Below are positions 10,061 through 56,690 of a DNA stretch of 64,000 nt, in pieces; the first letter of the stretch is position 1; each line of letters begins with the position of its first letter. Both the position numbers and the translations under genes were made by a program. The notes under the pieces are model-generated. The model was not told where the DNA came from, did not search any database, and saw only the letters and a program-made list of their open reading frames with translations. This DNA comes from Eledone cirrhosa (taxonomy: Eukaryota): the NCBI GenBank assembly GCA_964016885.1, contig OZ024742.1, forward strand, positions 70,618,001 to 70,682,000, given 5' to 3'.

Positions 10061-10350
10061 TATAAACGTTTGTATATGTATAATAAAGCCAAAACAATGC
10101 AGGTATGGACATAGAATAAAGAATGCAAATGCAAAAGATATTGTTGACAATTAGTCTTTTACCTTAGATTTATTTAAATGTCAGGACATTTAAATAAATC
10201 TAAGGTAAAAGACTAATTGTCAACAATATCTTTTGCTTTTGCATTCTTTATTCTATGTCCATACCTGCATTGTCTTGGCTTTATTATACATATACAAACG
10301 TTTATATCTCATTACACAATGCTTCAAGTGAACTATAACTTCCTCATATA
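10061..10350 (+). mobile_element. About 245-bp near-perfect palindrome; minimal fold-back PLE insertion
   Basis: Arms 10061-10181 and 10184-10306 are reverse complements. The right arm continues to acaATGcttcaagtgaactataac (MLQVNYNFL), similar to the PLE ORF start at 21306 (MLQANFNTL). (TA)n on both sides. Confidence 0.75.
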
Positions 10351-10387
10351 TATATATATATATATATATATATATATATATATATAT

Positions 10388-11325
10388 ACGATCATTATGC
10401 TAAAAGCTTATAGTTTTAAGCAGACAGTATTATTGATTTAGGTGTCATAGAAACCCTGCATTTGGATTTTACCATCAATTCCATTTGGGTCCCGGTCTGT
10501 TTTTATCATTTATTTTGTTTGACCTGTTTATCTTGATTTGTTTTTTGGCTTAGGTGGTTAATGCCTTCTTGACTACTTTTTCAGTTTGTATGGCGTTTTA
10601 ACATATTGTTTAGCTCTAGTTGTCTTAACTATTGGAGCGCTTGCCAGCATTTCTACGATTTTGCGTTTCGTTTCGCTTTTTCTACCAGCCAAAATGCGAT
10701 TCTCACTGAATTTATATTTGTATTAATCTCCCGAGTCTTACGATTAACCTGTTAATAATTCTATTGACATATTAATTGCATAAGTTTATTTTAAAAACTA
10801 CCTGGTAGAGTGCTTATTCGATTTGTGCTATCTATGCAATTTTTTGTATGATATACACATACTGAATTCATTTGCCAAAATCTGGGGGTTTTTCCCCTTG
10901 TGAGTTACACATGTGCTTTTACAAAGTTCTACGTCATTCACTAAGTTGGTTGCAGAGCAAAATACCTGTTGATAACGTGATATTCCTTGTTCGATCATTA
11001 TGCTAAAAGCTTATAGTTTTAAGCAGACAATATTATTGATTTAGGTGTCATAGAAACCCTGCATTTGGATTTTACCATCAATTCCATTTGGGTCCAGGTC
11101 TGTTTTTATCATTTATTTTGTTTGACCTGTTTAGCTTGATTTGTTTTTTTGGCTTAGGTGGTTAATGCCTTCTTGACCAATTTTTCAGGTTTGTATGGCG
11201 TTTTAACATATTTTTTTAGCTCTAGTTTTCTTAACTATTGGAGCGCTTGCCAGCATTTCTACGATTTTGCGTTTCGTTTCGCTTTTTCTATCAGCCAAAA
11301 TGCGATTCTCGCTGAATTTATATTT
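10388..11325. repeat. Partial tandem duplication (period about 605 bp, about 330 bp repeated) between (TA)n tracts
   Basis: cgatcattatgctaaaagcttatag...gaatttatattt occurs at 10388-10720 and 10993-11325. Confidence 0.85.
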
Positions 11326-11894
11326 ATATATATATATATATACACAGTTCAAGAGTAACCAATCTTAAAGAGAGAGATGGAGATAGGAGAGATTGGTGAA
11401 TTAGTTAGAAGCCAAAGCGTAAAGGTATGTGCTCAATGTGCAAAAAGCAGCTAGGTGACTGGGTTCATGCAGAAGTTAGGCGCGCAGAGCTGGAAATATT
11501 CATTAGTTAACCAAAACAAGACCACAAATTTCACAAGGAAGACATTATTAAAAGATTGTCAACATATTTTAGTTTGATGTAAGGAATGTAGAGAATAATA
11601 ATAATAATATTAATAATAATAATATCCGTTTACAATTGTTTCGCTACTCCATATAATATTTCTGGATCAGATGACTATATATCATTATTGATCTGGTTCA
11701 GTTGAAAATAATTAACATGTTTAAAAACAGAGCGGCTCATCGGAACTTCAAAGGAATATAAATTAAAATAAGGAGAGAATGTTACATAATGTAATGTTCC
11801 ATATATTGGTATTTCACTATGGTGTCCTGGTTGTATCAGTTGTCAGCCATAATCAAGCAGTATTCATCTGTCGAGGCTGCATTGTTATTTTTTA

Positions 11895-13252
11895 AAATAA
11901 TGGTCCCTCTATCACCATCGAGCCGAACCATAAAGTAGTAAACTACCTAGACGTCACCCTGGATCTCAACAATAACCTATATTACCCTTACCATAAACCA
12001 GGTGAAATACTCACATATATTAGCCAACACTCTAACCACCCACTGGCAGTCATCAGAGCAGTAATCAAATCTATCTCGTATAGGATCTCCATGCTATCAG
12101 CAAATGAGGAGATATTTATAAACCATGCACAATATTATAATAAGGCTCTTTCTGAATCTGGTTATGAACAATCAATTTACTACATACCTAAATGCCATAA
12201 CACAGCAATTCACCATAATAAACTTAACACTAGAACTAGAAATACCTTAGCATATATCCAGATTCGCCGGAATTTTAGCAGTAACAGCACCTATAGAGGG
12301 AAGTTTAATGGTGGCAGCGGCCTGCTCGCCACTCCAAGTAGCAAACTAAAAATCAACCCTAGAATAGGAATGAGAAATGGGATGACAAATAACAAATCCC
12401 CAGGTAATAATAACCCTAGGAAGGCCCCTACCAACTCCACTAGAACCCCTAGAAGGAATAGACCTAGAAATATCACCTGGCTTAACGCCCCATTCTCATC
12501 TAATCTAGCCACTAATATCCCTAAACGCTTCTTCTCTATCCTATCTAAACATTTCCCCCCCAACCATAGATATTACAAACTCTTTAATAAAAATAACATT
12601 AAAATCTCATTCTCCACAATACCTAACCTACGACATCGCATTCAGTAACCATCATAAACTAAGACAGTATAACTCCCACACCGCGGTACCCCCCCCCATC
12701 AAATACACCACCCCACTACACCAATACTTACTCTAGTAGCACACCTCCCCCATCTAATCCTTCTAGCACTGACCAACCGCTTAGGTTAAACAACCCTACT
12801 CTCACTAACCGCAGAAGTAACTGCAACTGCCGTTACCCTAATGCATGCCCACTCAATGGACATTGCCTGACACCCAACATAGTCTATAGTGCACGGTTAA
12901 AACTGCTTCGCAGACCAGCTCTTATATCGGGTTTACCTCTAACCCTTTTAAGGTACGCTATAACGCGCACTCTTTTTCCTTCCGAGACCCTAACAACAGA
13001 TGTTCGACATCTCTAGCTAGGCTCATGAAAAACCTTAAATTAACCAACATTGAACACTCACTAACATGGGATATGTTAGCTAGGGCCCAACCGTTCAATG
13101 GACGAAGAAAATCTTGTGACATCTGTCTTACCGAAGCATATTACATAACTCTATCACGACCTCTACCGATTAACGATAGAACGGACGTAAATATTAGCTG
13201 TCAACATCGAAGGGCTAATTCCTTCGCCAACAGAATATTTGACCCAACATAG
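11895..13252 (+). pseudogene. PLE RT thumb/linker plus GIY-YIG endonuclease, disrupted
   Basis: VNYLDVTLDL, YHKP, SNHP, WLNAPFSSNLATNI, IKISFST, CNCRYPNACPL, CDICLTE and SCQHR motifs; ORFs 12091-12648 and 13025-13252. Confidence 0.85.
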
Positions 13253-13630
13253 TCATCTAGCCCCATTTTTACTTGTAGCTAATAAGTTAAATAGCTATAA
13301 CTAACTTAGATAATTATAAGTTACCTCCCCTACATTGTCTCTCAATTAAAAAATGTAAAAATTAGCACTTAACTGTAAACTACCCACAATTTCTAATCTC
13401 TCGAGGAGTTATTTCCCCTGAAATCACCCTCTAATTAGTAAGGTAATTATGTCCTTTAGCAGCCATCTTGTTACCCATAGGCAGATCTCACACAATGCAG
13501 CCTCGACAGATGAATACTGCTTGATTATGGCTGACAACTGATACAACTAGGACACCATAGTGAAATACCAATATATGGAACATTACATTATGTAACATTC
13601 TCTCCTTATTTTAATTTATATTCCTTTTAA

Positions 13631-54554: not shown

Positions 54555-54601
54555 TGCTCCGAAGAATCCAAACCTCGGTTTGGAGGAAACAGTTGTAAGC
54601 A
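54555..54601 (+). ncRNA. Type I hammerhead motif with U4C core (mirror copy 49523-49569, -)
   Basis: tgct-CCGAAGA-a-tccaaacc/tc/ggtttgga-g-GAAA-cagttg-TA-agca. Confidence 0.7.
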
Positions 54602-55062
54602 TAAAAATGTTTTGAACAGTTCTTTGATTATTATAATTCATATAACTGCTCTGTAAATCATCTGATGTTTTTACATTGAGCTACTTAACTTACTGGTAAT
54701 AAGGTAGTAATATATTACTGCCTAGCACTATTTAGGGTTTTTATAAAAATATATATAACTGCAAAAGGTTTTTGTATTTACATAACCATAAATAGTATAA
54801 TTAATACTATATATATATATATACTTCACGTATTTCATACCAACAGGGCATATCAAAGGACCGAAATAACGGAGGTAAACTTTGTTCCATCATCATGTTT
54901 TTCTTTTTTTCTATTCAAGTTCTAGCTGTCTAATGAGGTCATAACTGTTGAATTATTGTCATCATCGAAATATATATACCAGCGTATATGAATAAACGAA
55001 ACAAATTTAAATCTGTTGACTTACACTTCTTGTTTATATATATATTTATATATATATATATA

Positions 55063-55250
55063 ACAGAGGAAATGTGGTAAATAACCAGGTGGACCATAAC
55101 GCACCAAAGTACTCAATACTTAGGGTAGTAGAGTGGGTAATAGGAACGGGTAGGACCCCAACGGCTGAGCTCAAGCCGTTTTTTTTTTTTAGTCCAGAAT
55201 TAGCCGTCGAAACGGCTTGAGCTCAGCCGTCGGGGTCCTACTCGTTCCTA
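55063..55250 (-). mobile_element. Tiny fold-back PLE pLTR end
   Basis: 55141-55181 is inverted relative to 55209-55250; GAAA-cggcttgagctcagccg-TC hammerhead 3' half; homologous to 24860-25070. Confidence 0.6.
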
Positions 55251-55312
55251 TATATATATATATATATATATATATATATATATATATATATATATATATA
55301 TATATATATATA

Positions 55313-56690
55313 TAATAACTTGAAATTGATTAACATATAAATAAACATGAATAATCACAGGAGATAATTTTTACAAGTGTGTAACCACACATAGCTAGGT
55401 AGGTAACTAAATAAAGTTGACCAGAACTTCAAAAATAGATACCTTATAATATGATTAATCTTCCCTGTATATATTCCATTAAAGAAATATATTTCACCAA
55501 TTAATCGGATGGTAAACCACGGAAGTGGATACTTGGATTTTCAACAAGGAAGAAGTTCCAGCGATCCGTGTTTACACTTCAAGTTCAAATCAGCGACTGG
55601 CCAGTAACACGTGCTATATCTACTAGAAATACACACATCACACTAGCTTCGTCCCAGTGGCGTGAATAGGGTTATCGACAACTAGAAACACCAGTCGAGT
55701 CCTTTCAACAGAGTTGAATATAGCACGTGTTACTGGCCAGTCGCTGATTTGAACTTGAAGTGTAAACACGGATCGCTGGAACTTCTTCCTTGTTGAAAAT
55801 CCAAGTATCCACTTCCGTGGTTTACCATCCGATTAATTGGTGAAATATATTTCTTTAATGGAATATATACAGGGAAGATTAATCATATTATAAAGTATCT
55901 ATTTTTGAAGTTCTGGTCAACTTTATGTAGTTACACATTTTTAAAAATTATCTCCTGTGATTATTCATGTTTATTTATATGTTAATCAATTTCTAGTTAT
56001 TATAAAATGCTCGGACCTACTCGTTAGAATCTTAGAGCTTATTTTGCGGGTGATATGGCGCATGTCTTTCTGGCATGGCACCCAGAATTTTGATTTGGAT
56101 TAAATTCATTTGATTTATCTTAATTTTGGATATAGATATATAAATACGGCTCCTTAATTGTAGAGCTAACTCTGTTGAAAGGACTCGACTGCTGTTTCTA
56201 GTTGTCGATAACCCTATTCACGCCACTGGGACGAAGCTAGTGTGATGTGTGTATTTCTAGTAGATATAGCACGTGTTACTGGCCAGTCGCTGATTTGAAC
56301 TTGAAGTGTAAACACGGATCGCTGGAACTTCTTCCTTGTTGAAAATCCAAGTATCCACTTCCGTGGTTTACCATCCGATTAATTGGTGAAATATATTTCT
56401 TTAATGGAATATATACAGGGAAGATTAATCATATTATAAGGTATCTATTTTTGAAGTTCTGGTCAACTTTATGTAGTTACCTACCTAGCTATGTGTGGTT
56501 ACACACTTGTAAAAATTATCTCCTGTGATTATTCATGTTTATTTATATGTTAATCAATTTCTAGTTATTATAAAATGCTCGGACCTACTCGTTAGAATCT
56601 TAGAGCTTATTTTGCGGGTGATATGGCGCATGACACCCATAATTTTGATTTGGATTAAATTCATTTGATTTATCTTAATTTTGGATATAT
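55313..56690 (+). mobile_element. ORF-less element: about 546-bp unit in partial tandem plus an inverted arm
   Basis: atatagcacgtgttactggccag occurs at 55718 and 56264; 55313-55716 is the reverse complement of 56168-56572; (TA)n on both sides. Confidence 0.85.

Follow-up and report, generated by a model that had tools for sequence, protein, structure and literature searches.

We analyzed a window of 64,000 nucleotides (nt) from Eledone cirrhosa (assembly GCA_964016885.1, contig OZ024742.1, positions 70,618,001 to 70,682,000 of the forward strand) in which nine inserts, labelled E1 to E9, contain inverted arms, most of them two head-to-head copies of the 3' portion of a Penelope-like element (PLE) set in a (TA)n repeat. 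These fold-backs are probably ordinary PLE insertions into (TA)n, made by twin priming as a routine event: both ends of the cut repeat would prime on one RNA, and central end-joining would follow. The basis of this reading is what is observed in the inserts, namely, two fixed 3' ends per family (a short end, S, and a tailed end, L), the pairing of an S arm with an L arm, variants common to the two arms, the head-to-head geometry, and TA on both sides. Two primings from opposite ends joined at the center, as proposed in an earlier reading of the same stretch made without database searches (the sequence-only reading), give the best fit to the data.

Self-comparison of the window by BLAST recovered inverted arms at all nine places named by the sequence-only reading. 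Mapping on family references showed head-to-head arms, outward-pointing 3' ends on (TA)n, and two unequal 3' ends in eight of the nine; the exception is E4 (24858-25068), in which the plus arm breaks off before S, with an extra small inverted piece between it and the TA run. That the elements are PLEs holds as well. E3, at 17.8 to 24.6 kb, matches Pfam RVT_1 and GIY-YIG; E2, E5, E6, and E7 are without a Pfam match but have reverse transcriptase (RT) and endonuclease (EN) motifs and are linked among themselves by tblastn, the link between E5 and E3 being weak. As in EN-bearing (EN+) PLEs, RT is followed by a GIY-YIG endonuclease in one open reading frame (ORF), and there are partial tandems (pseudo-long terminal repeats, pLTRs), an inverted 5'-truncated copy, and a tail.

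The families were then followed through the 3.0-Gb source assembly by exact core patterns, which gave 26261 matches for E5, 553 for E7, 2891 for E3, 1775 for E1, 29424 for E4/E8, 1083 for E9, 12 for E6, and 6 for E2, the last two too few for pair counts. For each pattern the first 30 positional loci were taken (all where there were fewer), to which close pairs among the first 100 matches and some single matches were added for E5, E7, and E3; pairs were over-sampled in this way, and the locus sets therefore give no fold-back fraction. Copies of a given family terminate at one of two positions, S or, 40 to 190 nt farther downstream, L, with very few ends elsewhere. Tandem copies read on past both positions into the unit that follows, and the E5 tail codes for the first codons of the next unit's ORF. 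An S arm was paired with an L arm in 79 of 82 fold-backs (36/38 in E5, 26/26 in E7, and 17/18 in E3), the remainder being two LL and one SS (p 4e-20 against 50%). Among 119 L arms of the E4 family, the partner was an S arm in 70, an L arm in 4, and something else in 2, and 43 were unpartnered. Some L arms lie wholly within the tail and have nothing in common with their S arm (2 of 26 in E7 and 5 of 70 in E4). The central junctions consist of short overlaps, blunt joins, or inserts of up to about 90 nt, contain no TA, and differ in every copy.

Joints between families were seen in a few places. In one Neptune-type fold-back (locus L068, 2226-2294) the center has ~39 nt matching the Hydra-type E7 RNA just past L, which suggests a template jump between families. 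Pieces of E7 and E5 are directly joined head-to-head in L186 (5236-5854) and in tandem in L121 (1-188). Within a single further Hydra-type family, two tailed ends confront one another at 25195-25460 of the window, with 126 nt of TA repeat between them.

The genome-wide occurrence that had been anticipated was found in three 200-kb blocks picked regardless of content, which contained 33 fold-backs, 29 with unequal ends, amounting to 26 kb of insert per 600 kb or roughly one fold-back per 18 kb. All were in the C5 and C12 blocks; the third block (G000:C2:250000001-250200000) is a purine-rich tandem satellite in which no TA run, local inverted repeat, or fold-back was found. A family-blind scan of all sampled sequence gave 238 single-insert fold-backs, 223 of them with unequal ends. 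By eye, the first 100 positional E5 core matches comprise 28 minus-then-plus pairs within 6 kb versus one plus-then-minus pair, and at least 28 of about 72 loci in this set are head-to-head pairs. By loose extrapolation the genome would hold hairpins on the order of 100,000, candidate formers of double-stranded RNA or cruciforms. An expression search listed no RNA record.

Arm ends are far from random with respect to TA, (TA)3 being found within 24 nt past the 3' end in 232 of 241 sampled ends versus 7.4% of window 30-mers. TA is also present on the 5' side of 28 of 59 unpaired copies (background, 7.4%), a few of which are fold-backs with a very short second arm; the TA repeat therefore pre-exists the insertion, as the sequence-only reading had it. 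A search for flank patterns returned mostly imperfect TA flanks and one read-through copy (L335).

Partner arms resemble each other in a way that points to a common template. In the 73 of the 82 pairs with 40 or more comparable columns, non-majority bases common to both arms were more frequent per column than in random pairs (0.028 versus 0.006 in E5, 0.022 versus 0.005 in E7, and 0.014 versus 0.004 in E3), so that partner arms have subfamily variants in common 3.5 to 4.5 times as often; a separate run on E5 agreed. Divergence between partners is about half that of random pairs, which differ by 5 to 6%, or less, and in one locus (L109) both arms carry an identical internal deletion.

Arm lengths were less regular than the window alone indicated. 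The five ORF-bearing inserts have tails of 157, 44, 60, 133, and 167 nt, always on the more 5'-truncated arm, as had been noticed before; the ORF-less insert at 55315 shows the opposite arrangement, and as a strict rule the asymmetry is rejected by the sampled copies. Judged by 5' end point, the L arm was shorter than the S arm in 41 of the 79 S+L pairs, longer in 24, and equal (within 20 nt) in 14 (p 0.046), the 41:24 skew being driven by E7, the family with the longest tail. When each arm was measured from its own start, the count was 43 versus 35 with one tie (p 0.43). Symmetric lengths of this kind are expected of two separate cDNAs, and if these were equally processive their offset starts would leave the end-point asymmetry as a by-product.

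The tails of the Hydra-type families contain a predicted, covarying RNA stem, with the layout RCTC, inner stem, 2-nt bulge beginning with T, and GAGY, that starts about 3 to 14 nt past S. Its descriptor was derived from the window families and then run on 50 tail clusters that include them, a few of which are mis-called arm breaks, so that 50 is an upper bound on the number of families. The descriptor matched 25 of the 50 cluster representatives, versus a mean of 0.16 and a maximum of 2 in shuffles and 0 in the reverse complement; random 130-mers matched at a rate of 0.5%. Of the base pairs, the descriptor imposes the first inner one. It leaves open the outer pair, which is A-U in 12, G-C in 12, and mismatched in 1, and likewise the second inner pair, which obeys standard pairing in 24 of 25. 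Among 11 motif clusters with non-TA read-through, 8 have the stem again past L, and the other three comprise two with simple repeats only and one near miss. Where motif clusters had a visible ORF, it was closest to Hydra proteins in six of seven and to a Neptune protein in one. By eye, six Hydra consensus sequences from file S7 of Craig et al. contain the stem exactly in three (one coral and two sea cucumber, one of the latter having it twice, about 60 nt apart) and nearly in two; it was not seen in one.

A variant, GTTC..TT-GAAC, with a compensatory change in the second pair was seen by eye past an end in tail clusters 20, 27, and 45 (C12 block and loci). E5 has a 7-nt word repeated at both ends in place of the stem. 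For E5 and E3 we also considered that S and L might be brought together at the base of one stem, a candidate that found no support in folding (z from -1.2 to +0.7).

The ends overlap the TA register by a few nucleotides (4 and 4 nt at S and L in E5, 5 and 3 in E7, 3 and 3 in E3, and 4 and 4 in E2), and in 29 of 50 tail clusters the S site has at least 3 consecutive nt in TA register, versus a background of 20%. The sequence-only reading had priming begin at variable AU-rich positions through microhomology; each family has instead two fixed ends. Choice of the site by the best TA microhomology is rejected as well, 30 of the 50 tails holding a longer unused TA-register run (e.g., 9 nt in the E7 tail). 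It is likely that 2 to 5 nt paired with the TA end fix the register, but not which site is used. At some ends (L114, L130, L168, L176, L178, and L212) the last 3 to 12 bases of the element are duplicated before the TA run, suggesting primer realignment after a false start or repeated initiation. PLE RTs and telomerase being sisters, a start defined by a stem, pairing of 2 to 5 nt, and re-initiation repeats bear on the origin of telomerase-like template use.

From these observations we infer the following course of events, including the order of priming. Both strands of the TA repeat would be cut, and one cut end would prime RT at S and the other at L, 40 to 190 nt downstream, on one common RNA molecule. 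The trailing L polymerase would displace the S cDNA, and the two cDNAs would be end-joined at their inner ends. In the Hydra-type families a predicted bulged stem follows both S and L on the 3' side; each of the two stems may load one RT, and such loading would explain the single use of each site by one complex. We put forward, more tentatively than twin priming as such, that the process is programmed, with one RNA, two RT-loading signals, and two first strands joined centrally in place of classical second-strand synthesis. It is conceivable, with the balance slightly against it, that the Hydra signal is the RCTC/GAGY stem, kept from corals to sea cucumbers to this genome. The tail may likewise be the spacing between the two RT-loading signals, a proposal we would rate just below even.

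Several observations weigh against twin priming of one RNA or fail to single it out. If the trailing L polymerase collided with the other complex, L arms should pile up at S, and there was no clear excess (12 of 119 within 10 nt). Arms with equal 5' ends outnumber expectation in E5 (8 versus 2.4 expected, p 0.0008) and are common in E4 (44/70), both of which fit a snap-back of one cDNA too. The partner was closer than the best other locus in 23 of 73 pairs, tied in 16, and not closer in 34, and variants common to the arms, as a feature of the alignments, fit one RNA or two RNAs from the same source locus alike. Comparing three kinds of copy, the inverted, the inner tandem, and the outer tandem (eight alignments, one evidently misaligned), favored no model. 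About half of the insertions are unpaired. The stem is absent from the E5 and E3 tails and is therefore not the signal in all clades. No read or contig among the matches listed bridges the window's own E2 and E7 junctions. Finally, in the parts of the in vitro study of Poseidon PAc drawn on here (PMC11167929), the start site did not differ between strands and was not homologous to the cut DNA.

The alternative that survives best, although unlikely, is an asymmetric protein dimer with a pair of RNAs from a single active source copy, each protomer starting on its own RNA, the first at S and the second at L. It accommodates the S+L pairing and the symmetric cDNA lengths, and also the common variants if few source copies are active at once; a PLE of the Poseidon clade is predicted to be dimeric in the sections consulted of PMC11167929. 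An extra rule would be required to bar S+S and L+L pairs, and many subfamilies coexist, as the 5 to 6% random divergence indicates, yet partner arms match in subfamily and in the rare L109 deletion.

Slightly less likely again is that a single cDNA snaps back and primes itself, the EN resolving the hairpin at staggered sites so as to leave a tail, with later central deletions accounting for the unequal arms. Such a course, which is near the self-priming and EN-resolution ideas found in the consulted portions of PMC3846280 and PMC8557442, would give variants common to both arms, the excess of equal 5' ends, and junctions at internal palindromes. Under this model the tailed arm should exceed its partner in length, yet it was shorter in 41 of 65 unequal pairs, and arms wholly within the tail have no sequence in common with their partner. 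In E3 (17813-24559), moreover, the inverted arm has a tail that the outer copy lacks and starts far upstream of the adjoining tandem copy.

Two independent back-to-back insertions in one TA repeat, later homogenized by gene conversion, are improbable. Different families do strike TA repeats repeatedly, but the central junctions are without TA, and S+L pairs would be expected to make up about 50% where 96% were observed. Strong conversion predicts that the partner is the closest of all loci, which was true in just 23 of 73; heavy conversion is therefore disfavored, and the test resolves the subfamily, not the molecule. An assembly or chimeric-read artefact would account for the lack of bridging matches at the window's own junctions but is hardly credible, since the arms differ by 0.2 to 7% and end at different family-fixed sites, one arm has a nested insert, the same structure has been described in other animals, and E2 and E7 joints of the head-to-head type occur at other loci in Illumina reads and contigs from other samples (among them a joint from 11555 to 12796, with 2 starts among 5 raw reads; a loose end at 11885 is the linear continuation of the E2 family).

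The overall outline of these fold-backs is known from other PLEs. The sequence-only reading overlooked that geometry, tail, and (TA)n bias had been described before, and it did not notice the obligate pairing of S with L or the duplication of the RNA stem. As far as the consulted parts of three papers go (PMC2377424, PMC3846280, and PMC8557442), an inverted 5'-truncated copy, a tail at one end, and (TA)n targets have been published, with inverted pLTRs and a tail in Penelope of D. virilis, Adineta Pen2a, and Naiad, and (TA)n targets in Hydra, Naiad, and Neptune (PMC8557442). The window elements resemble the PLEs described in those parts in the partial tandem with an inverted 5'-truncated head-to-head copy, the often one-sided tail, and, in E5, a tail overlapping the ORF start. 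They differ in that published tails measure 30 to 40 bp and are called optional there, while here they reach 190 nt and tailed and untailed ends were paired in nearly all sampled fold-backs. The two arms here also have template variants in common, and the PLE accounts consulted give no count of such pairing and no twin-priming model.

Poseidon PAc comes closest experimentally. According to the portions of PMC11167929 consulted, both strands are cut and extended in vitro, two adjacent internal RT starts bound the tail, and the start lies in a stem-loop with a hammerhead upstream, a dimer being predicted. Inverted insertions are not addressed in those portions of Frangieh et al. 2024 (PMC11167929), where the word "inverted" occurs once, for a reagent, and here a TA register of 2 to 5 nt at many ends and a duplicated stem were found. 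In Craig et al. 2021 (PMC8557442), the passages on stems, hairpins, and secondary structure contain no mention of the RCTC/GAGY stem. The S+L rule, a PLE twin-priming model, and the stem are likewise unstated in the literature searched, parts of which may be anticipated by Arkhipova 2006, Evgen'ev and Arkhipova 2005, the Pyatkov papers, or the supplement of PMC11167929. Relative to that literature, the S+L rule, the arms sharing template variants, and the duplicated Hydra stem are new. The consulted text of Craig et al. 2021 (PMC8557442) names the origin of PLE inverted repeats and one-sided tails as an open problem, and the 2024 in vitro paper (PMC11167929), in the parts drawn on, leaves open the steps after initiation; the S+L rule, the common template, and the duplicated stem together make a concrete model whose parts can be mutated in an existing assay.

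The arms also recall those left by the event known as twin priming in L1, which resembles the present case in the inverted segment, the outward 3' ends, and the end-joined center. There, as Ostertag and Kazazian reportedly described in 2001, the second broken end primes on the same RNA, leaving an inverted segment with an end-joined center; the second site is said to vary and to lie far upstream, with little overlap between the pieces. Unlike in L1, the second site here is fixed 40 to 190 nt away and the paired product is a major outcome; the arms therefore overlap into hairpins. L1 twin priming is mentioned in the part consulted of bioRxiv 2024.12.14.628481.

The sequence-only reading spoke of many unrelated families, which overstates their range: judged by their motifs, E2, E6, E7, and E4/E8 (five inserts) are Hydra-type, E5 is Neptune-type, and E3 and its relative E1 appear to be of a third clade; the ORF-less E9 unit has the Hydra-type signal. 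The CxCX5C linker, a feature of the Hydra clade, is found in E2, E6, E7, and the E4 family. The E7 unit has DKT, RWR as a variant of RWK, no CCHH, and the Hydra EN pattern CxxC/CxH around E and N; at 4180 nt it exceeds the size given for the clade, generally under 3 kb. As described in the consulted passages of Craig et al. 2021, Hydra clade PLEs share with these families CxCX5C, DKT, the lack of CCHH, and (TA)n targets, and the 4.2-kb E7 unit and the variant hammerhead cores set the window elements apart. E5 has a CX4CXXC linker and two Cys and two His in a C-terminal EN, as in Neptune, and E3 combines DKG and CCHH with a partial Cys linker (a reduced or absent linker, CCHH, and DKG are the marks of Nematis or Penelope/Poseidon). 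A canonical hammerhead core with stem II occurs in E5 only; variant cores lie near S in E7 and E4, and none was seen in E3. An Rfam search gave nothing at gathering level and no hammerhead match. In the E4 family, loci L267 and L256 have a hammerhead-like fold upstream of S, with core U3-A8 in one copy and C3-A8 in another rather than C3-G8.

Among the Hydra-type inserts, E2 has a minus-strand left arm (11343-11885) that reaches L, with its 157-nt tail at 11343-11499 and a GCTC..TT-GAGC stem just past S at 11431-11490 (position calculated from offsets), and a plus-strand right arm (11887-13877) comprising a Hydra-type RT thumb-EN fragment and 3' region to S, in which the broken ORF (11896-13252) contains the CxCX5C linker. 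The left arm of E6 (29358-31816, minus) runs to S, includes a Hydra-type EN at 31407-31816, and is interrupted at about 29808-31175 by an insert nested within the arm's internal TA repeat; the right arm (31817-32935, plus) runs to L with a 133-nt tail and an ACTC..TG-GAGT stem at 32808-32846. E7 consists of a minus-strand left arm to S (49485-53053) with a Hydra-type RT-EN ORF (51013-52881) and a plus-strand right arm to L (53111-54807) with a tail of about 165 to 167 nt and a GCTC..TT-GAGC stem at 54648-54681; self-BLAST showed a 58-nt perfect palindrome at the central junction (53051-53108). E4 is made of a Hydra-type minus L arm, the plus arm short of S, and the inverted piece, with the stem at 24905-24928, and E8 (55063-55250), of the same family, of a minus L arm (55063-55181) and a plus S arm (55182-55250), with the stem at 55111-55134.

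The Neptune-type E5 has a minus-strand left arm to L (25480-25743), with a tail of about 56 to 60 nt, and a plus-strand right arm to S (25742-27077) containing a thumb-EN ORF fragment and the hammerhead core (26886-26914). Tandem right arms are found in two inserts, E3 (17813-24559) and E9 (55315-56684). The minus-strand left arm of E3 (17813-20272) reaches L with a 44-nt tail; its plus-strand right arm (20269-24559) ends at S and comprises a partial copy (20269-21332) that runs through S and L into a whole plus-strand unit (21333-24559) with RT and GIY-YIG and with stops present. E1 (10065-10346) has a minus arm to S (10065-10183) and a plus arm to L (10184-10346) with a 43-nt tail, and is the 3' end of an E3-like PLE, longer copies containing the E3-like ORF. 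The small inserts were also considered as amplified miniature inverted-repeat transposable elements (MITEs), a candidate that we reject: E1 and E4/E8 are 3' stubs of ORF-bearing PLEs, and in place of the fixed terminal inverted repeats and common internal unit of a MITE or foldback DNA transposon, their centers vary by copy and their ends are unequal.

E9 is built from a ~546-nt tandem unit in which no ORF was seen, with a minus S arm at 55315-55715 and a plus arm of two tandem copies reaching L; stems lie past S (56577-56606) and past the inner L (56149-56166). It is like the non-LTR retrozymes, as presented in the consulted part of bioRxiv 2026.07.22.740005, in being an ORF-less tandem with PLE-type ends, while neither a core scan nor Rfam found a hammerhead in E9.

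The window has other fold-backs and repeats as well. An older fold-back of an E5 relative at 16516-16975, missed by the sequence-only reading, is flanked by TA only on the right and has, near 16674, a core resembling a hammerhead. Nested in the E6 TA repeat, at 29833-31013, are two inverted copies of a repeat resembling short interspersed nuclear elements (SINEs), which enclose a PLE EN fragment and a small hairpin. Further hairpins are found at 48090-48520 (TA on the left only), 17251-17428, 2839-3162, and 28655-29069. Between 33423 and 44951 are two long interspersed nuclear elements (LINEs) of the APE-RT type, ~82% alike, the plus-strand copy (ORFs at 36679-42081) being nested oppositely in the minus-strand copy, parts of which flank it (EN at 42279-42920 and RT at 33667-36558); this is a nested insertion and not a PLE fold-back. 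Toward the end of the window, a GC-rich stretch at 62035-62805 contains a PHD-finger ORF, possibly a LINE ORF1.

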